From an uncultured Clostridia bacterium (GTDB taxonomy: Bacteria; Bacillota; Clostridia; Oscillospirales; JAAYOS01), in contig CANQDU010000001.1 in the NCBI GenBank assembly GCA_947593925.1, positions 141,188 to 205,187 of the forward strand: a DNA stretch of 64,000 bases. The letters are read 5' to 3'. Position numbers and translations under genes: made by a program. How positions within the stretch are numbered: the first letter of the stretch is position 1; each line of letters begins with the position of its first letter. A model generated the notes under the pieces. The model saw only the letters and a list, made by a program, of their open reading frames with translations, searched no databases and was not told the origin of the DNA. Of the stretch, positions 7,317 to 64,000 are shown one piece after another.

Positions 7317-9323
7317 TTATTCAAGCCCGTAATAGCTCGCAGCGCGCGCCACGTCCGCGCGGAACGTATCCGCCGGAAGGACGGCCGCGCATCCCGCCTC
7401 TCCGCTCGACGCCCAGACTATCCCCACAAGCTCCCCGTCCCGGGAGTACGCGCCCGAGCCGGAGGCTCCCGGAGCGAGCGGTATATCCGTCAGCACCGAA
7501 TCGCCCGCGTACCCCTCGAGCGTCACACTGCCGGAGTGCGCCGCGCCGTCGGAGCCGTCGTAAATGACTATTCTTCCGTCGATCGCGGGCGCGGCGGCCG
7601 AGAGCCGCGCGGCGCGGTTCATGCTCGCCGCCACCTTCAGTATGGCGTAGTCGTGCTCCCCGGATACGCAGTACACCTCCGCCGGGACGCTTCTCCCGCC
7701 CGGAAGCGTGACCGCTATCGCGAGCGCGTCCCGCGCGACGTGCGCGTTCGTCACGATGAGCCCGCCCCTGTGGACGGCTACTCCGCAGGCGGAGCCGACG
7801 CCGTTCTTCAGCGTCACTCTTATCGAGACGCTCTCGCCCGCGAACTTCTCGAGCGCGTCCGGCGTAAGCTCGAACGCCGCCCCGCTTCCGCGTATGGCGA
7901 CAAGGCGCTCGTTTGCAATATATTCCACGTCCGCGCCGAGCGCGGTCATGACAAAGCGGAGCGGCACGAGCGTCCGCGAGGACACTATTTCCGCCGGGAC
8001 ATCCAGCGCCGCCGCCCGGCCGTTCACGGCGGCGGCGGTGCTGCCGATAGTCACCGAGACGCTTCTGCCGCCAAGCGCGGCGAAAGCGGTCTTTGTCACG
8101 CCGTTCCACGACACATCCGCACCGAGCCCTTCGAATATCGCCCGCATCGGCACGAGCAGACGTCCCGAGCGGTTCACCGGCTCGACGTCGAACGTGAGCT
8201 TCTTCCCGTCGAGCAGGACGCGGTACGTCCCGGAGGAGCGCTGCGGAAGCTCGTAGGAGCCGCTTCCCACCCGCATGAACGTGTCATAGTCGAGGCGGTC
8301 TGTCCCGCTGCCGAGCTGACAGCAGACGTTCGAACCCGCCGCCCAGCGCTCGCCGTTAGTCTTGACGGCGGTGATAAAGCTGCCGCCTATCGCGCAGGAC
8401 GCGACGTCGTGCAGAGCCTCGCTCGGCGCGGCCACGCTCCCGGCTCCTATGCCGAGCTCGCCGGCGTTCCCGGTCCCCCATGTGTAGAGCGTGCCGGACG
8501 TGCTCACGGCGGCGAAGCGCCCGCTGTTTGCCGTGACGGACGCCATTCCGGAGCGCAGCAGAACGGCGCGTCCGTCGCGGTAGAGGTACAGCCCTCCCGC
8601 GCGAGTGATGTACAGTATCTCGCTCGATGTGGCGGCGGCCGTCGTGACGCCGTGCGCTATCGTCGTCTCCTTCGCGCGTCCGTTCCCGACGCCGCCGGGA
8701 ACGGCGCTTCCGAGGGCGGAGAGCTCCCCGTCCCGCAGCAGCAGAGTCGTGGCGCCGCCGCAGAACACCGCGTCAACGCCCTCCGCCACGGCCCGCGGGG
8801 CGCTCCCGAGCCGTCTTCCGTCCGGATACTCCCAGGAGGCGTTGCCCCATGCGTAGAGGACGCCGTCCTCCGTGAGGGCATACGCGCGGTTCAGCGCGGC
8901 GGCGGTCTGCTTCACTCCGCCCATGACGAACACCGGCGAGCTCGACTGTTCACTCTTTCCGTTACCGAGCTGACCCTGTTCGCCGTTGCCCCATGCGTAC
9001 AGATCGCCGGAGGCGGTCACGGCGTAGGAGCTCCACTGTCCGGCGGCGATGCCCGCCGTGCCGCGCATAACAAGGCGAGGCTCGGCATACGAGACGTTCG
9101 TCCCGATGCCGAGCTGACCGTAGCGGTTGTCGCCCCACGCATATACCTCGCCCGAGCCGCGAAGCTCGAGCGTGTGATATCGTCCCGCGGCAAGGACGCC
9201 GGGCGCGTCCTCCGCAAGCGCGGCGGCGGAAATCTCCGCCGCCGCCGTGTTTACGGTAAGAAGCGGCAGGAGAAGCGCGAGCGCCGCAAGCGCCGCCGAA
9301 AGGCGGCGAAACGCCGTGCGCAT
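7317..9323 (-). CDS. Secreted multidomain protein: RCC1-like repeats + copper-amine-oxidase-N-like (stalk) domain + trypsin-like serine peptidase domain
   Basis: A signal peptide (MRTAFRRLSAALAALALLLPLL) is followed by repeated YAWG(xN)xxGQLG motifs. Next come LVPMRAIFEGLGADVSW...LVPLRFVMTALGADVEY, then TNAHV...DYAILKV...GASGSG. Confidence 0.75.
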   Translation of the reverse strand: MRTAFRRLSAALAALALLLPLLTVNTAAAEISAAALAEDAPGVLAAGRYHTLELRGSGEVYAWGDNRYGQLGIGTNVSYAEPRLVMRGTAGIAAGQWSSYAVTASGDLYAWGNGEQGQLGNGKSEQSSSPVFVMGGVKQTAAALNRAYALTEDGVLYAWGNASWEYPDGRRLGSAPRAVAEGVDAVFCGGATTLLLRDGELSALGSAVPGGVGNGRAKETTIAHGVTTAAATSSEILYITRAGGLYLYRDGRAVLLRSGMASVTANSGRFAAVSTSGTLYTWGTGNAGELGIGAGSVAAPSEALHDVASCAIGGSFITAVKTNGERWAAGSNVCCQLGSGTDRLDYDTFMRVGSGSYELPQRSSGTYRVLLDGKKLTFDVEPVNRSGRLLVPMRAIFEGLGADVSWNGVTKTAFAALGGRSVSVTIGSTAAAVNGRAAALDVPAEIVSSRTLVPLRFVMTALGADVEYIANERLVAIRGSGAAFELTPDALEKFAGESVSIRVTLKNGVGSACGVAVHRGGLIVTNAHVARDALAIAVTLPGGRSVPAEVYCVSGEHDYAILKVAASMNRAARLSAAAPAIDGRIVIYDGSDGAAHSGSVTLEGYAGDSVLTDIPLAPGASGSGAYSRDGELVGIVWASSGEAGCAAVLPADTFRADVARAASYYGLE

Positions 9324-33428: not shown

Positions 33429-34415
33429 TCAGTATGTGAATTGCAGATTCACCGTGAGGTGGAACCTCTCTCCCGTTCCGTCGTCGTTCTCGCAGAACTC
33501 CAGCGTGAGGCGGTACGGGTACTCGGTCTCCATGGTCTTGCCGATCTCGCGCTCAAATGTCACCTGACAAAAATACTTATTCCCGCTTGTCCAAACATCG
33601 CTGACGTACCGGCTTCCGGCCGTTTCCTCCGTCCTGAACACGCGGTCGCTCACGTCCTGCCACTCGCCGTCCTTCTGCATCTCGAGGGTGGTCTTTGCGC
33701 GGTCGAGGCAGATACCCGTGCCGTCGTTGCTTCGCAGGACGAAGTCCATCGCGGCAACATTGCTAGGATCGTACAACAGGCAGGTCGAGATCACGTCAAA
33801 CCGCTTCTCCGTCGCCTCGGGAACGGTAAGCGTAAACGTGATGTGGTACAACTCGTCGCCGGTGGTGTAATGATAATACTCCATGGTCTCCGACTCCCGG
33901 AAGTACAGCGTACAGCGGTAAGTTCCCGGGTCGCTTACGGGTATGCCGAATAAAGTCCACACACTTTCCCCCGCTCCCATGCCCGCATAAGGCGGCTCGC
34001 CGAACATCAGCAGGCTCGTAAAGTCGACCGCAAGCTCGTCGTTGTACTCGACCCACTCGCCGTCCTCAAGGCGCTCTACATGGCTCTTGGGATAGCTGTC
34101 CTCATCACCAACCGCTCTTCCGTTCTTGTAGAGCGCCGATGTGAAGGCTATATCCTTCGACGCCGCGAGTCTCACCCCCGCCTCGTCGTACATCGCATAT
34201 TGCATCCGGTCCCACACGATGCTCTCCGCCCGGAGGATGTCGACGTCCCCCTCGCAGTCCGTTATCTGCGTTTCGGGACGGCTGAAGGTGTACACGTCGC
34301 GCACCATTCCGAACTCGGGGTTCGGGTCACGCGCCCGAAGCACGAGCGCCTCCGCCACAGCAAGCGCGGCAAATACCAATATCGTCGCCGCCGCAAAAAG
34401 TATCTTCTTTTTCAT
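33429..34415 (-). CDS. Secreted protein of unknown function (paralog of 1489..2586)
   Basis: A signal peptide (MKKKILFAAATILVFAALAV) is present. The motifs LE..DGEW..V, PGTYRCTLYF and the C-terminal YRLTLEFCENDDGTGERFHLTVNLQF are shared with the paralog. Confidence 0.6.
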   Translation of the reverse strand: MKKKILFAAATILVFAALAVAEALVLRARDPNPEFGMVRDVYTFSRPETQITDCEGDVDILRAESIVWDRMQYAMYDEAGVRLAASKDIAFTSALYKNGRAVGDEDSYPKSHVERLEDGEWVEYNDELAVDFTSLLMFGEPPYAGMGAGESVWTLFGIPVSDPGTYRCTLYFRESETMEYYHYTTGDELYHITFTLTVPEATEKRFDVISTCLLYDPSNVAAMDFVLRSNDGTGICLDRAKTTLEMQKDGEWQDVSDRVFRTEETAGSRYVSDVWTSGNKYFCQVTFEREIGKTMETEYPYRLTLEFCENDDGTGERFHLTVNLQFTY

Positions 34416-34617: not shown

Positions 34618-35358
34618 CTACCTCACCGCTCCGCGCTGTAGGCGGAGCCGGTCGGCGATTATCGCTATGAACTCGGAGTTTGTCGGCTTGCCCTTGACGC
34701 TCGAAACGGTGTAGCCGAAGTATTTCTGCAATACCTCGAGGTCGCCTCTGTCCCACGCGACTTCGATCGCGTGGCGAATAGCGCGCTCGACGCGGCTCGG
34801 CGTCGTGCCGAAGCGGCTAGCGACCGCCGGGTAAAGCTGCTTTGTGACGGCGTTGATGTACTCCGGCGTCTCCGCCGAGAGAATTATCGCCTCGCGTATG
34901 TAGCCGTAGCCCTTGATGTGCGCGGGAACGCCTATCTCGTGCATTATCTCAGTGACGCGGCTCTCGAGGCTCGCGCTCTTTGCCGCCGCGCTCCGCCCAA
35001 GCACCTGTTCCGCCGCCGCCTGCATGGTCGAGGCGCGGAAGGGCTTCGCCACGAAGTACTCCGCGCCGGCGTCGTAGGCGAGCAGCGCCGTGTCCTCGCG
35101 GACGAAGTTCCCCACGGCTATCATCCTCGGCGCGTCCTCACGTCCGCGCAGCTCGCGCATGAGGCAGAGCCCGTCCAATTCGGGAAGTATCATCTCGGTC
35201 ACGAGCAGGCGCGGGTTCTTCTCCTCGACGAGGTTCAGCGCCTCCTCTCCGCTCGCGGCGCAGCCCACCACGTCGATACCCGCGCTTTTCAGCGCCTCGG
35301 TTATCGTCTCGCGCGAGGTCTCGCTCGCATCCGCCACTATCGCAGTTCTTCCGTTCAT
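34618..35358 (-). CDS. spo0A: Stage 0 sporulation protein A (Spo0A) with atypical receiver domain
   Basis: The C-terminal domain is diagnostic ([47 protein letters not shown]). The receiver reads VADAS and [13 protein letters not shown] instead of VADDN and LVLDIIMPHLDG. Confidence 0.85.
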
Positions 35359-35388
35359 ACAAAAACCTCCATTCTGATTTCTCTGATT

Positions 35389-35395
35389 TTCGACA
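35389..35395 (-). promoter_or_regulatory. Consensus 0A-box (TGTCGAA) upstream of spo0A
   Basis: The plus strand reads TTCGACA, which is TGTCGAA on the spo0A strand, 31-37 nt upstream of the ATG. Confidence 0.35.
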
Positions 35396-35683
35396 CTTTT
35401 CTAGCGTATATTTGCCGTATCCTTTGTCTTTTGCGCCGGAACGTGCCGTAAATTGCTAATCAAACGATACCACAGTTTTTGCCGGTGCGCAAGATATTTT
35501 TATAAAATTCTCCTGATTTTTTAACGACGATTTTTCTCATTACGTCTAAAAATTATGTAAACTCTGAACTTTTTCTCGACATTTCTTGTTTTCTCGACCG
35601 GTTTCCCTCCCGCGCGGCGGAGGCGGCAAATGCCTCCCGAAGCGTCCTCCGCGAGAAAAACTTGACTTCCGTGCGGCAAACTC

Positions 35684-35713
35684 TTGACAGAACGGGGCTT
35701 TTTGGCGTATAAT
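35684..35713 (+). promoter_or_regulatory. Candidate sigma-A promoter of the rpmH operon
   Basis: TTGACA (35684-89) and TATAAT (35708-13) are separated by 18 nt. Confidence 0.55.
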
Positions 35714-35797: not shown

Positions 35798-35932
35798 ATG
35801 AAACGTACCTATCAGCCCAAGAAGCGTCAGCGTTCCCGCGAGCACGGCTTCCGCAAGCGCATGGCTACCGCCAACGGCCGCAAGGTTCTCGCCAGCCGCC
35901 GCGCGAAGGGTCGCGCGCGTCTCACGCACTAA
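35798..35932 (+). CDS. rpmH: 50S ribosomal protein L34
   Basis: It is not in the ORF track (44 aa). The translation is [44 protein letters not shown], with an AAGGAGG RBS at 35781-87. Confidence 0.92.
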
Positions 35933-35935
35933 AGC

Positions 35936-36310
35936 TTGCTTCATACCGAATCGTTAAAGGAAAATCACGAGTTCCGAAGGCTGTACTACCGGGGCAAGTG
36001 CGCGTCCGGACGCGCGATGGCGGTGTACTGCCTCAAAAACAGATGCGGCTGCAACCGTCTCGGCCTCACGGTCGGGGCGAAGCTCGGCTGCGCCGTCGAG
36101 CGCAACCGTGTCCGCCGCAGACTGCGCGAGTGTTACCGCGCCGTCGAGCCCGAACTGAAGCTCGGGTATGACGTCGTCATCGTAGCGCGGAGCCGCGCCG
36201 TCGGTCTGGAATTCGGAAAGCTCGGGGCGGAGCTTTCCCGCGCGTTTGCCTCGCTCGGGCTTTTTCGCGCGCCGCAAAACGGCAAAGTCGATGAAGAAGG
36301 TCATGCTTAA
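35936..36310 (+). CDS. rnpA: Ribonuclease P protein component
   Basis: [11 protein letters not shown]...[24 protein letters not shown] is the RnpA signature. A TTG start lies 3 nt after the rpmH stop. Confidence 0.8.
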
Positions 36311-49865: not shown

Positions 49866-50537
49866 ATGCTTCGGATATTGGTCGTGGAGGACGATAAGGA
49901 TCTGAACCGCACGGTCTGCGCCTTTCTGAGCGGCGGCGGCTATGAGACGACGGGGTGTCTTTCCGCAGGCGACGCCTACGACGCCATGTACGGCAGCACC
50001 TTCGACCTCATTATCTCCGACATCATGATGCCCGGCACGGACGGCTACGAGTTTGCAAAGACGGTGCGCTCGCTCGACGAGAATATACCCATCCTCTTTA
50101 TGACCGCGCGGGACGACTTCGCCTCCAAGCAGCGCGGCTACCGCATCGGCATCGACGACTACATGGTAAAGCCCGTCGACCTCGACGAGCTGCTCCTGCG
50201 GATAGGCGCGCTCCTGCGGCGGGCAAAGATAGCCGCCTCCCACAGGCTGGAGATCGGAAAGCTCAAGCTCGATATGGACGGGCGCGCGGCGGTCTATGAC
50301 GGCGAGGAAATTCCCCTGACTGCGCGGGAGTTCAACATCCTCTATAAGCTCTTGAGTTACCCCGGCAAGACCTTCACCCGCACCCAGCTCATGGACGAGT
50401 TCTGGGACGTGGATACCGAGACCGCGCCGAGGGCCGTCGACGTCTACATAACAAAGCTGCGCGGGAAGTTTGAGAAATGCACGGAATTTGAAATAAAGAC
50501 CGTTCACGGTCTCGGCTACAAGGCGGTGATACTGTGA
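49866..50537 (+). CDS. OmpR/PhoB-family response regulator
   Basis: The receiver has EDD...D(ISDIMMPGTDG)...KP, followed by a winged-helix domain ending LGYK. Confidence 0.9.
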   Translation: MLRILVVEDDKDLNRTVCAFLSGGGYETTGCLSAGDAYDAMYGSTFDLIISDIMMPGTDGYEFAKTVRSLDENIPILFMTARDDFASKQRGYRIGIDDYMVKPVDLDELLLRIGALLRRAKIAASHRLEIGKLKLDMDGRAAVYDGEEIPLTAREFNILYKLLSYPGKTFTRTQLMDEFWDVDTETAPRAVDVYITKLRGKFEKCTEFEIKTVHGLGYKAVIL

Positions 50538-51631
50538 GAACCGATTCAAAATTCAGACGGTTTCTGTTCTCCTTGAGAAGCTACGCCGCCTTTTTCCTGC
50601 TGATGTCCTTTGTGATAACCTGCTGTATGCTGCTGTTTCTCTCCATGCTGTCCGGCTCGATGGAGATAACCTACACCGAGCGCGGGATACGCTTTGCGGC
50701 CGTGGCGACCTTCGTAAACGTCATCTTTCTCAGTCTGCTCTGTACCGTCATCGACGCCGTGCGCCGTCGTCTCTTTGTCGAGCGCCCCGTGCGGCGCATC
50801 GTAGAGGGCGCGGAGAAGATCATGCGCGGCGACTTCACCGCGCGGATCGAACCGTTCCACAGCATAGACAGCGGGGACGGGTTCGACGTCATCATCGACT
50901 GCTTCAACCGCATGGCGGAGGAGCTCTCCGGCGTCGAGACCTTGCGGACGGATTTCATTGCCAATGTCTCCCACGAGCTGAAAACACCGCTCGCCGTCAT
51001 ACAGAACTACGGGACGATGCTCCAAAGTCCCGACCTCTCGGAAGCACAGCGGACGGACTACGCGAAGGCTGTCACCGAACAGTCCCACCGCCTCGCCGAC
51101 CTCATCACGAACATCCTGAAGCTGAACCGTCTGGAAAACCAACGGATTTATCCCGCGGCGAAGCGGTACGACCTCGGCGAGCAGCTCGCCGAGTGTCTTT
51201 TGGGGTTTGAAAGCACATGGGAGAAAAAGGGCATCGAAATCGAAACCGACCTCGAGGAAGATGTTTTCGTTGAGTCGGACGACGAGCTGCTTTCTCTCGT
51301 CTGGAACAATCTGTTCTCGAACGCCCTGAAATTTACGGAGCCGGGCGGCACGGTGTCGGTGACGCTGAAAACCGAGGGAGCTTCGGCGGTGGTCAAAGTC
51401 GCGGACACCGGCTGCGGCATCTCGCCCGAGACCGGCAAGCACATCTTCGAGAAGTTCTATCAAGGCGACACATCCCACGCCGCACAGGGCAACGGTCTCG
51501 GCCTCGCGCTGGTGAAGCGGGTAGTGGACATCGTCGGCGGCGAGATCACCGTCGAGAGCGAGGTCGGGAAAGGAAGCACCTTTACCGTAAAGATAAGGAG
51601 GGCGGATGGAGAAGTTCAAAAGAATACTTAA
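50534..51631 (+). CDS. Sensor histidine kinase (2 TM, HAMP-like, HisKA, HATPase_c)
   Basis: The H-box FIANVSHELKTPL, N-box and G-boxes DTGCGI...GLGLALV are present. It overlaps the regulator gene by 4 nt. Confidence 0.85.
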   Translation: MRTDSKFRRFLFSLRSYAAFFLLMSFVITCCMLLFLSMLSGSMEITYTERGIRFAAVATFVNVIFLSLLCTVIDAVRRRLFVERPVRRIVEGAEKIMRGDFTARIEPFHSIDSGDGFDVIIDCFNRMAEELSGVETLRTDFIANVSHELKTPLAVIQNYGTMLQSPDLSEAQRTDYAKAVTEQSHRLADLITNILKLNRLENQRIYPAAKRYDLGEQLAECLLGFESTWEKKGIEIETDLEEDVFVESDDELLSLVWNNLFSNALKFTEPGGTVSVTLKTEGASAVVKVADTGCGISPETGKHIFEKFYQGDTSHAAQGNGLGLALVKRVVDIVGGEITVESEVGKGSTFTVKIRRADGEVQKNT

Positions 51632-61225: not shown

Positions 61226-64000
61226 TCACTCGACTATGAGCGAGACGAGACGTTCGAGGATGGTAGCGACCTCGGCGCGGGTGGCGTATCCGCGAGGATC
61301 AAGCGCGCCGCCGCTGCCGTTGATGATGCCGGAGCCGACCGCCCACCGCATCGCCTCTGCGGCGTAGGACGAGACCTTGCCGCTGTCGCTGAAGCCGCCG
61401 AGGTCGGCGGGCGTGCCGCCGTCCACGCCGAACTTCCCGGCGTAGCGGTAGATCATCAGGGCGAGATCTTCGCGGGTGACGCTGTCCGACGGACGGAAGT
61501 CGCCGCCCGAATAGCCGTTGATTATGCCGGCACCGCTCGCCCACGCGATGCCGTCCGAGTACCACTTGTCGGAGGCGACGTCCTTAAAGGCGGTGTCGCC
61601 GGTGGACTTGGTCTCGTTTTCAAGCCTCCAGAGAACGGTGGCGACCATCGCGCGGTCGGTGTTTGCCGTCGGGGAGAACTTACCGCCGCCGGTGCCGCCG
61701 AAGAGCTCGCGGGAGGATGCAAATCCGACCGCGCTCTCGTACCATGCGCCGCTCGCAACGTCCGAGAAGGTCTTGGTGGCATTCACGAGCTTCACCGTGC
61801 AGGAGCCGTCAAGGAGCGCCTTCACGGAAGCGCCGTCCGCTACGGACTTCCTTATCACGGTCTCGGCGCCGTCCTCGCCGACTATGACCGCTACGGTCTT
61901 GCCGCCCGCGGGCAGAGCGACCGAGAGGCCGCCGTCTATCTTATCAAGAGTTTTGGAACCGGTCGCCGCCTCGAAGCGGACACCGTCCCCGGACTTCGTG
62001 ACCGTCAGGGCGAGGCCGCCGTCCTTGGAGAGAGCGGCGAGCGCCTCGGCGCTGACGGAGACGTCCGCAAGCCCGGTGCTGAGCTTCAGGTCGAGTCCCG
62101 CGTCGGCGACCTTTGCGGTGTTCTCGGGAGTGATGGACAGGCTCACCTTGTCCGCGCTGCCGTCTATCTTGGGCGCTACGACGAGGCTCGCCGCGCCGGA
62201 CGCGCCGGCGTCGGCTATGCCTCCGAGCAGTACGTCCTCGGAAACGGAGACGCTTGCGGCTCCGCCGGCATCGACCGTGGCGTCGGGAGTGATGGTGACG
62301 CTCGTCGGGGCGGACGGGGTGAATACCGTGCCGCCTGCCGTGCCGCCGCCGAGACCGCCGAGACCGCCGGCAGCTCCGCCGCCGAAGCCTCCGAATCCGC
62401 CGGACGCGCCGCCGGCGCTTCCGCCCGCGGGAGCGCCGCTTCCGCCGGCCGTACCGCCGGTGCTTCCGCCCGTGCTGCCGCCGGTCGAGGGCTCTGTGCT
62501 CGGCTGGGTGGAGGGCTCAGCGGAGGGCTGGGTCGAGGGCTCGACAGAGGGTTCGGTGGAAGGATCTGTCGAGGGTTCGACGGGCTTTGCCGTCACCGCG
62601 ACGGGCGCACTGCCGGCGACCGTCGTATAGTTGGAACTGTTCGGAGTAAAGGTCCAGTTGTAGTACGCGGTCTTGACGCTCTTGGAGAGCACAACCTCCG
62701 TCGGATCGTCCACTCCGCCGACCTTGTCCCATGCGACCGTGCCGCTGACCGGCTCGCCCTTCGCACCGGTGGCGGTCACAGTAAGCTTCGACTGACTGAG
62801 GGTGTCGCCCTCGTCCACTCCGCTCGCGGTCACCTTAACGGTGGGTGTGGCGGGCGCGATGACAAGGGTGGTATTCATAGAGTTGGTTGTGTAGTTCGAG
62901 AGTTTGGAAGCGTCCGCCGTGACCTTTACCTTGTAGGTTCCGACATTCACGGGCGCGGAAGTGTTGTAGCTGCTGCCGCCGTCGGAGCTGTATTCGACAT
63001 TCACAGTTGCGCCGCAATCAGAGACACCTTCGATGGTGTGAGGATTGCCGTCATAGGTGACGCTCGTCTCGCCGGATATGGCGAGGTCTGCGGGCATGGT
63101 ATCGACTCCGGATATCAAAACATATCCGTGGACTTCGGTGTAGTTCTTCGAGGACGGCTTGAATACGTACTCGAGGCTCTGCTCCTCCGAAGTAATCAGT
63201 TTGTTTTTCGACGCGGCGGTGAGCTCGACCGTGCCGGGAACCGGCTCGCCGTTGTACGGGTTGCGGTAGGTGGCCTGTATTGACTTTTCGATAGTGGAGG
63301 CGAGCTGGCCGATCTTACCCTTCGGCGCGACGACGTCCACCTTCTGCGGTACGGCAGGGAGAACCTCGATGTCGCCGTCCACCCGATAGATTTGGTAGTT
63401 CCCGGCGCTGCCCGTTGCGTTGATACCGTAAGTGTCCACAGGCGCCGTGGGCGATGTACCGTTGCTTGCAAGGACTATCTGGATGCTGTCTGCCGCATCT
63501 ATCTTTGTGGAACCGATGTCATTCGGGCTGGGAACTGCGGAGACCTTCGCAAAGTCGGCGCTGACGATGTTCATGCTCTGACCGTAGAACTTGTGGAGTT
63601 CTTGCAGCTGAACGATGATTTGCCTCGGGAAGATCTCGCTGTATACCGTGACAGACTCGGGAAGGACGTACTTATCCGTGTTGTTGCCGGTGATCACGGT
63701 GCCCTTTTTGAAGGTTATCGTCACGGCCTTGTTCTTTCCGACATTGCCGTCTTCAAATGTTGCCACGAGGCAGTCCTTGCCGATGAGATCGCCGCACTTC
63801 AGGTTAATATTGTCACCGGAGAGGCCGTTGTAAACAGCAAAGCTCATTATCTGTCCGGTGGAAGTTCCGTTTGAATAGGGACGGGAATAGACCTCAATGG
63901 CAAACGTCAGCTCGCGCTTCTTTATGGTGTACACCGTCGAGGCCGCTGCGCCGGTGTAGCCGTGCCTCGGCTGAATGGAGGCGCGCACGTCGTATTCGCC
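61226..64000 (-). CDS. Large cell-surface protein: MBG/YDG-type repeats, Pro/Ser/Thr and Gly-rich linkers, three C-terminal SLH domains (N-terminus outside window)
   Basis: The frame is open to base 64000. The SLH triplet (FSDVASGAWYESAV..., FKDVASDKWYSDGI..., FSDSGKVSSYAAEAM...) lies at about 61241-61768. Confidence 0.8.
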   Translation of the reverse strand, partial: GEYDVRASIQPRHGYTGAAASTVYTIKKRELTFAIEVYSRPYSNGTSTGQIMSFAVYNGLSGDNINLKCGDLIGKDCLVATFEDGNVGKNKAVTITFKKGTVITGNNTDKYVLPESVTVYSEIFPRQIIVQLQELHKFYGQSMNIVSADFAKVSAVPSPNDIGSTKIDAADSIQIVLASNGTSPTAPVDTYGINATGSAGNYQIYRVDGDIEVLPAVPQKVDVVAPKGKIGQLASTIEKSIQATYRNPYNGEPVPGTVELTAASKNKLITSEEQSLEYVFKPSSKNYTEVHGYVLISGVDTMPADLAISGETSVTYDGNPHTIEGVSDCGATVNVEYSSDGGSSYNTSAPVNVGTYKVKVTADASKLSNYTTNSMNTTLVIAPATPTVKVTASGVDEGDTLSQSKLTVTATGAKGEPVSGTVAWDKVGGVDDPTEVVLSKSVKTAYYNWTFTPNSSNYTTVAGSAPVAVTAKPVEPSTDPSTEPSVEPSTQPSAEPSTQPSTEPSTGGSTGGSTGGTAGGSGAPAGGSAGGASGGFGGFGGGAAGGLGGLGGGTAGGTVFTPSAPTSVTITPDATVDAGGAASVSVSEDVLLGGIADAGASGAASLVVAPKIDGSADKVSLSITPENTAKVADAGLDLKLSTGLADVSVSAEALAALSKDGGLALTVTKSGDGVRFEAATGSKTLDKIDGGLSVALPAGGKTVAVIVGEDGAETVIRKSVADGASVKALLDGSCTVKLVNATKTFSDVASGAWYESAVGFASSRELFGGTGGGKFSPTANTDRAMVATVLWRLENETKSTGDTAFKDVASDKWYSDGIAWASGAGIINGYSGGDFRPSDSVTREDLALMIYRYAGKFGVDGGTPADLGGFSDSGKVSSYAAEAMRWAVGSGIINGSGGALDPRGYATRAEVATILERLVSLIVE
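62330..62587 (-). repeat. Coding low-complexity tandem repeats (EPST units, then GGS/GGA/GGF/GGL units)
   Basis: The translation reads PVEPSTDPSTEPSVEPSTQPSAEPSTQPSTEPSTGGSTGGSTGGTAGG...GGFGGFGGGAAGGLGGLGGG. Confidence 0.8.

Follow-up and report, generated by a model that had tools for sequence, protein, structure and literature searches.

A Spo0A-type regulator with glutamate at the phospho-acceptor position in a lineage of uncultured Clostridia

Introduction

How would a Spo0A be controlled if its receiver had lost the aspartate that accepts the phosphoryl group, and would such a protein be the only Spo0A of its organism? This question is raised by a gene lying on the reverse strand of a 64,000-nucleotide stretch of DNA (hereafter the window) from an uncultured Clostridia bacterium (GenBank assembly GCA_947593925.1, contig CANQDU010000001.1, positions 141,188 to 205,187). 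The gene encodes a Spo0A-type protein in which glutamate occupies the phospho-acceptor position, and the reading favored here is that it probably represents a functional, vertically inherited Spo0A whose receiver has turned into a pseudo-receiver, that is, an aspartate-less receiver.

A full-length Spo0A with a canonical DNA-binding domain

Profile and structure comparisons identify the open reading frame (ORF) as a full-length Spo0A with a canonical DNA-binding domain (DBD). The gene starts with ATG, 8 bases downstream of a GGAGG motif, and its product scores 253.3 bits against the NCBIfam equivalog model TIGR02875 (spore_0_A), above the cutoff of 200. Residues 7-116 match the Pfam Response_reg family (PF00072; 5.2e-19, with 68.9 bits where the cutoff is 30.2), and the whole Spo0A_C model (PF08769, positions 1-104 of 104) matches residues 135-238 at 4.5e-45. 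In phmmer alignments the DBD pairs over its full length with the crystallized Spo0A DBDs (2.9e-42 to 1lq1 and 3.9e-42 to 1fc3), and the recognition helix that contacts DNA is identical to that of canonical Spo0A. In the AlphaFold2 model (predicted local distance difference test, pLDDT, 87.9) the receiver consists of five strands and five helices, and Foldseek places this model at a template modeling (TM) score of 0.87 to 1qmp and of 0.90 to 1lq1, the latter with a root-mean-square deviation of 1.4. The preliminary description of the locus, a by-eye reading of the DNA, had called the C-terminal domain canonical, and both the Spo0A_C match and the unchanged recognition helix bear this out. As Spo0A_C is intact and strongly constrained, binding to 0A boxes and contact with RNA polymerase would be expected as in other Spo0A proteins.

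No histidine kinase gene adjoins spo0A, whose neighbors are rpmH and a gene for an unannotated 328-residue protein, so that it does not belong to a classical two-component pair. Orphan status, with no adjacent kinase, is normal for Spo0A. The window has one histidine kinase gene only (HAMP-HisKA-HATPase_c; 50534-51631), which shows translational coupling with the gene of an OmpR-type regulator (pair at 49866-51631, forward strand); being paired with a regulator of its own, it provides no orphan-kinase candidate for Spo0A.

Residues of the phosphorylation pocket

The equivalence of the pocket residues was established in three ways. In the phmmer alignment with the receiver of Geobacillus stearothermophilus Spo0A (1dz3/1qmp), the acceptor stretch of the window protein pairs with ILLLDIIMPHLDGL, and IAVGNF pairs with IMLTAF. 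A MAFFT alignment including Bacillus subtilis Spo0A, Escherichia coli CheY and 120 homologs assigns D10 and A11 to the first and second acidic positions (DD1 and DD2), E55 to the acceptor, G83 to the conserved Thr/Ser and K105 to the conserved Lys; the B. subtilis Spo0A and CheY sequences in it were entered by hand, and the 1dz3 phmmer alignment is independent of both. Finally, in the AlphaFold2 model E55 ends strand beta3 (51-55), G83 ends beta4 (78-83) and K105 lies just past beta5 (101-104). At its five key positions the window protein has D, A, E, G and K, those of canonical receivers being D, D, D, T/S and K. All three approaches concur with the alignment made by eye in the preliminary description, which had proposed Glu in place of Asp56, Gly at the Thr84 position and a retained Lys: the check by HMM alignment returned Glu55 and not Asp, the Thr84 position corresponds to Gly83 by phmmer, MAFFT and AlphaFold2, and the Lys is Lys105.

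Not every departure from the canonical pocket is peculiar to this protein. At the second pocket Asp position none of the 120 nearest homologs, the few source-named members of which are Oscillospiraceae, has an acidic residue (98 Ala, 14 Ser, 3 Thr, 2 Gly, 1 Val, 1 Pro and one gap). Since Ala at this position is a family-wide trait, the VADAS motif is no evidence of degeneration in the window protein; the earlier assignment of Ala to the second Asp was right, and the "degenerate acidic pocket" deduced from it was overstated. The acceptor Asp, in turn, is kept in 109 of these 120 homologs, the Ser in 114 and the Lys in all 120, the exceptions to Ser being the five members of the clade described in the next section plus one protein with Ala. 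As aligned here, the only clade-specific changes are Asp to Glu at position 55 and Ser/Thr to Gly at position 83. The Pro at D+4 and the Gly at D+8 are retained, as are D10 and K105, and E13, two residues past A11 and nearly invariant among the homologs, might substitute for the second metal-binding Asp. The occurrence of Glu at the acceptor position in a pocket without Thr/Ser and without the second metal-binding Asp supports the loss of canonical phospho-acceptor chemistry. Phosphoryl transfer from a kinase or phosphorelay to the canonical site is very probably impossible, so that the protein would not be switched on by phosphorylation.

Fixation and selection in the Glu/Gly clade

The two clade-specific substitutions are found beyond the window. 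Five protein clusters (P0001-P0005), 70-99% identical, all carry Glu and Gly, and the next matches, at 57% identity or less, are canonical. A scan of the GTDB species representatives for the clade pattern retrieved four metagenome-assembled genomes (MAGs) with Glu and Gly, again at 70-99% identity, namely two rabbit-gut ("Lapin") uncultured Clostridia, one uncultured Oscillospiraceae and one further uncultured Clostridia (the set comprising CANRJS01 (GCA_947631015.1), CANRIN01, CAZBNJ01 and CAMNWZ01), and a scan of JGI metagenomes added one further clade contig only. The survey of related genomes for the same substitutions, which the preliminary description had proposed, has thus found them in every clade member, both in P0001-P0005 and in the four MAGs.

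The exact window protein is present on 13 contigs, and the ORF is intact in all 13 and in all relatives. Codon 55 is GAG in six of the six independent clade genes examined, and codon 83 varies synonymously among GGG, GGA and GGC. A sequencing error can be dismissed on account of the 13 contigs, the GAG codon in six clade genes and the synonymous variation at codon 83. Ratios of nonsynonymous to synonymous substitution (dN/dS, Nei-Gojobori) are low in both domains: 0.047 for the receiver and 0 for the DBD between the window and L010, 0.014 and 0.03 between L011 and L012, and 0.27-0.44 and 0.08-0.13 in deep pairs, which are saturated. Glu55 and Gly83 are fixed in the clade, and the receiver has retained its fold under purifying selection. 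The possibility of a relaxed, decaying receiver was considered and rejected, as receiver and DBD identities within the clade stand in a ratio usual for canonical pairs and dN/dS values are low.

Distribution of constraint within the receiver

The location of this constraint was compared between the clade and 1,833 canonical pairs at equal receiver divergence (47-58%). Two elements are unusually variable in the clade, alpha1 (21-29% identity against 51 +/- 10 in canonical pairs, rank 0.00) and beta4 (25-38% against 62 +/- 14, rank 0.00), and two are unusually conserved, alpha4 (75-83% against 42 +/- 13, rank at least 0.98) and beta5 (100% against 60 +/- 13, rank 1.00). In response regulators, kinases and phosphotransferases dock mainly on helix alpha1, and alpha4-beta5(-alpha5) is the usual output or dimerization face. 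The shift of constraint from alpha1/beta4 to alpha4-beta5 would fit a loss of partner docking together with a stronger use of the output face, a match that is suggestive only, as no more than two or three of the clade sequences behind the statistic are effectively independent.

Acceptor loss in other Spo0A lineages

Two more groups without the acceptor Asp were found among the top 120 matches, each nested among Asp-type sequences in the neighbor-joining (NJ) tree. Clade B (P0011, P0039, P0042) has Glu at the acceptor position and keeps the Ser, and clade C (P0105, P0112, P0114) has Asn. The clade C gene (P0105; L028 2028-2795) is flanked by the same NUDIX (69%), DUF2812 (51%) and PadR (77%) genes as the Asp-type P0007 (L022), and this sharing of flanking genes with a canonical spo0A indicates an orthologous replacement. 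In the clade B locus (L025 2703-3458), spoVAC and spoVAD lie 1.5 kb away, which implies that at least that organism keeps sporulation genes. A fourth lineage, again with Glu at the acceptor (VVITELILPELDG), is represented by L014 7000-7806 in an Eubacteriales MAG (CAUGMN01).

A cluster search over 1.84 billion representatives at 50% identity extends this picture. Among the best 150 matches, 106 had a complete receiver, and 18 of these 106 have no acceptor Asp (12 Glu, 2 Asn, 2 Gly, 1 Ser and 1 Tyr); the resulting 17% is not a genome frequency, because the representatives over-weight divergent sequences. Compared with the window clade, the other lineages without Asp mostly keep Ser/Thr, and the branches leading to clades B and C are of ordinary length. 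Judged from these alignments, acceptor loss is recurrent, having affected at least four Spo0A lineages here, the window clade included. As a separate observation, the top-scoring representatives P0121-P0124 are 394-454 residues long and contain 3-4 separate stretches matching the query Spo0A_C, apparently in tandem.

Alternative explanations

The leading alternative, which is considered unlikely, is that the window protein is a diverged paralog, and that a canonical, phosphorylatable Spo0A is encoded elsewhere in the genome and modulated by it through competition for 0A boxes, mixed dimers or a separate regulon. Several observations weigh against the reading favored here. In the NJ tree the clade forms the sister group of the 109 other homologs, and its stem measures 0.124, the median branch being 0.02. 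In the DBD, canonical relatives share 79% identity with the clade and 89.5% with each other. The stem is long in both domains, as would also be expected of a neofunctionalized paralog. The rpmH-adjacent locus is not among the spo0A neighborhoods of the relatives; in P0007, for instance, spoIVB is located some 4 kb upstream. Within the approximately 82 kb of the source genome that were read (the window plus about 17 kb of flanks), no gene specific to sporulation was found. Moreover, paralogs of spo0A are documented: they occur in 11 of 118 Spo0A-positive genomes, all Clostridiales, the remaining 107 having a single spo0A (bioRxiv 10.1101/2022.02.25.481979).

On the other side, the argument that the long branch proves a paralog is weakened by the behavior of other genes. 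The relatives of the formate-tetrahydrofolate ligase (FTHFS) encoded in the same window descend a similar ladder of identity (99-100%, about 90%, 77%, then 68% or less) to those of Spo0A (99, 84, 70, then 57% or less); the few named FTHFS matches are one Christensenellaceae MAG and one Oscillospiraceae MAG. This similarity points to the organism itself being an isolated lineage, and the long branch of Spo0A can reflect that. Within the clade, Spo0A (84%/70%) has also diverged in step with the syntenic YidC (72%/67%), GalK (74%/69%), RnpA (80%/72%) and GalE (82%/79%). In addition, acceptor loss has occurred at an orthologous locus in clade C, and a single copy is the rule in about 90% of Spo0A-positive genomes. 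In the window and its flanks, tblastn detected a single spo0A, and searches with B. subtilis Spo0A (in the window) and with the window DBD (in all the loci compared) returned one copy per locus; P0006 and P0007, which were checked as possible second copies, do not come from the same MAG. Taken together, the FTHFS ladder, the divergence of the syntenic genes and the clade C locus lean toward a vertically inherited ortholog, and the view that this is the sole Spo0A of the organism is modestly favored.

A second alternative, judged quite improbable, retains control by phosphorylation in a non-canonical form, either on Glu55 or on a neighboring hydroxyl such as that of Thr54, which directly precedes Glu55 in the window protein. 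There is precedent for the latter, as CheY D57N is phosphorylated on Ser56, and the retention of D10, K105 and the Pro and Gly at D+4 and D+8 would be in keeping with non-canonical control of either form. However, the 70% relatives have Val where the window protein has Thr54 (VVELV), the pocket contains neither the second, metal-binding Asp nor the Thr/Ser, and no element of the receiver is less conserved in the clade than the docking helix alpha1. As to Glu55, the authors of the study on aspartate-less receivers consider Glu phosphorylation possible in principle and know of no example of it in bacterial signaling (PMC4395418). Lastly, the idea of a functionless, decaying relic or of an assembly or sequencing artifact, to which only the lack of sporulation-specific genes nearby could lend some color, is effectively refuted by the low dN/dS, far below 1 in both domains, and is further opposed by the ORF being intact in all 13 contigs and all relatives and by the DNA-contact helix being identical to that of canonical Spo0A.

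Relation to known receivers and to engineered variants

The window protein shares with canonical Spo0A, as known from B. subtilis and G. stearothermophilus (1qmp, 1dz3, 1lq1, 1fc3), the two-domain architecture, the status of orphan regulator and a score above the equivalog cutoff. It differs from it in having Glu for the acceptor Asp, Gly for the Thr/Ser and Ala for the second pocket Asp, in the displacement of receiver constraint from alpha1/beta4 to alpha4-beta5, and in a gene that adjoins rpmH and is not linked to spoIVB.

There is also a likeness with the aspartate-less receivers of transcription factors such as ChxR of Chlamydia trachomatis, HP1043, GlnR and RamR, which like that of the window protein are recognized by PF00072 and lack catalytic residues; ChxR also has a natural Glu at the acceptor position. 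The typical pattern of this class, with a retained first pocket acid, a retained Lys and no second acid, is that of the window protein (PMC4395418, PMC12632262). Glu is the commonest replacement in these receivers, and many of them are active or dimeric without phosphorylation (PMC4395418; PMC12632262). Unlike the studied members, the window protein has Spo0A_C as its output domain, and not one of the OmpR or NarL type, and it is known here from its sequence. The window Spo0A is an uncharacterized member of this known class and not a new kind of system. Aspartate-less forms had already been counted among proteins combining Response_reg and Spo0A_C (7 of 391; S6 Table of PMC4395418, 2015). Those 7 are not discussed in the text of that paper, Spo0A goes unmentioned in a 2025 review of pseudo-receivers and its supplements (PMC12632262), and our literature search found no study describing a natural Spo0A without the acceptor Asp, the S6 Table count being the only trace (PMC4395418).

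The idea of activity without a phosphorelay is shared with the engineered NtrC D54E, which like the window protein has Glu at the acceptor position, and with the constitutive Spo0A variant sad67. The latter acts through a deletion in the receiver and not as a point mimic. Unlike these engineered phosphomimics, the Glu of the window protein is natural and ancient, and its Thr/Ser partner has been lost.

A proposed mode of action

If the window protein is indeed a functional Spo0A with a pseudo-receiver, it would bind 0A boxes through its unchanged DBD, and its output would be set by the amount of protein and not by phosphotransfer. A phosphorylation-independent interaction at the alpha4-beta5 face, either self-association or binding of a partner protein, would probably contribute as well, and Glu55 may add negative charge. 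The preliminary description had seen in Glu55 a partial phosphomimic that might render the protein constitutively semi-active. This was not borne out: in the phosphomimic model Glu engages the conserved Thr and Lys (PMC12632262), and in Spo0A itself the exchange of Asp for Glu reportedly does not suffice for activation (Green et al. 1991, cited in PMC4395418). With Gly83 in place of the Thr partner, Glu55 is probably not a classical phosphomimic. The earlier interpretation is thus right in part, being supported as regards the lost acceptor chemistry, the canonical DBD and the fixation of the substitutions in a clade.

Locus, promoter region and neighboring genes

The features of the locus are collected in Table 1. 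In every clade case, including the 84% and 70% relatives, spo0A lies divergently upstream of rpmH-rnpA-yidD-yidC-jag. Upstream of rpmH there is a perfect promoter (TTGACA-18-TATAAT; 35684-35713, forward strand), which is conserved across the clade. The place divergent from this gene is commonly that of dnaA; here it is filled by spo0A, and dnaA is not among the annotated genes of the window. The cumulative GC skew has no clear minimum at the rpmH locus, and no claim on oriC is made.

The sigma-A-like promoter upstream of spo0A is also conserved in the clade and consists of TTGCG(C/T), a spacer of 17 nt and TATCGT or TAATAT. Two 0A-box-like motifs are found on the same strand, the consensus TGTCGAA at 35389-35395, 30 nt before the start codon, and TGTCGAG at 35575-35581. 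The TGTCGAA box is not conserved upstream of spo0A in the 70% relatives, and the enrichment of such motifs in the window is not significant (10 TGTCGAA against 7.9 +/- 2.8 expected; 25 TGTCGAR against 19.1 +/- 4.2). Autoregulation of spo0A through these putative 0A boxes is only a lead.

Table 1. Features of the spo0A locus in the window.
Feature	Position	Strand	Evidence
spo0A-type gene with aspartate-less receiver, 246 aa	34618..35358	-	TIGR02875, 253.3 bits
Receiver (pseudo-receiver) domain, residues 1-122	34993..35358	-	PF00072; AlphaFold2 (beta-alpha)5 fold
Spo0A_C DNA-binding and transactivation domain, residues 130-243	34630..34971	-	PF08769, phmmer, Foldseek
Codons for D10 and A11 (A11 at 35326-35328): first pocket Asp kept, second is Ala (family norm)	35326..35331	-	MAFFT, codon comparison
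Codon 55, GAG: Glu at phospho-acceptor position	35194..35196	-	phmmer, MAFFT, codon comparison
Codon 83, GGG: Gly at conserved Thr/Ser position	35110..35112	-	MAFFT; synonymous variation in clade
Codon 105, AAG: conserved pocket Lys, retained	35044..35046	-	MAFFT, codon comparison
spo0A 5' region: ribosome-binding site GGAGG, sigma-A-like promoter, 0A-box-like motifs	35359..35600	-	
rpmH, first gene of divergent rpmH-rnpA-yidD-yidC-jag operon	35798..35932	+	Neighbor conserved across clade

Immediately downstream of spo0A, the 328-residue protein (33429-34415, reverse strand) is hydrophobic at its N-terminus and matches no Pfam family. In the 70% relatives a similar place is taken by an unannotated ORF of 346 residues, but a tblastn search of L012, L024 and L029 with the 328-residue protein gave nothing at E <= 1e-8. 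On the other side, the ORF at 35936-36310 (forward strand) shares 70-80% identity with the stretch annotated as Ribonuclease_P in the relatives, and in several assemblies a 116-residue ORF without Pfam match has been called on the strand opposite rnpA (L001 9055-9405).

Farther away, the window encodes a large cell-surface protein with SLH domains (61226-63988, reverse strand; at least 920 residues), with a gene for 1342 residues at the matching place in L032. Another large surface protein combines RCC1 repeats, Cu_amine_oxidN1 and a trypsin-like domain; the large surface proteins are located at 61226-63988 and 7317-9323 of the window, both on the reverse strand, and at L005 13079-17128. These genes suggest an S-layer-bearing envelope in the window lineage.

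Implications

Spo0A is the textbook example of a developmental switch gated by a phosphorelay, and phospho-blind forms that are maintained under selection raise the question of how entry into sporulation is timed without kinases or, alternatively, of what role Spo0A has after sporulation is lost. Under the strict definition of PMC12632262, all 120 nearest homologs would count as pseudo-receivers, though acceptor Asp, Ser and Lys are all present in most of them, so that this definition may need nuance. In surveys of MAGs, the presence of spo0A is the first criterion for sporulation potential (PMC11536998). Such surveys should flag acceptor-less variants, which form a sizeable minority among the divergent clusters of the present sample. 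A broader proposal, advanced only tentatively, is that the only Spo0A of an isolated lineage of gut Clostridia is phospho-blind, and that its sporulation switch, or whatever regulon Spo0A presently has there, runs without input from kinases or a phosphorelay, as part of a recurrent loss of the acceptor in Clostridial receivers that have no second Asp. If this is true, finding spo0A in a MAG need not imply a sporulation decision gated by phosphorylation.

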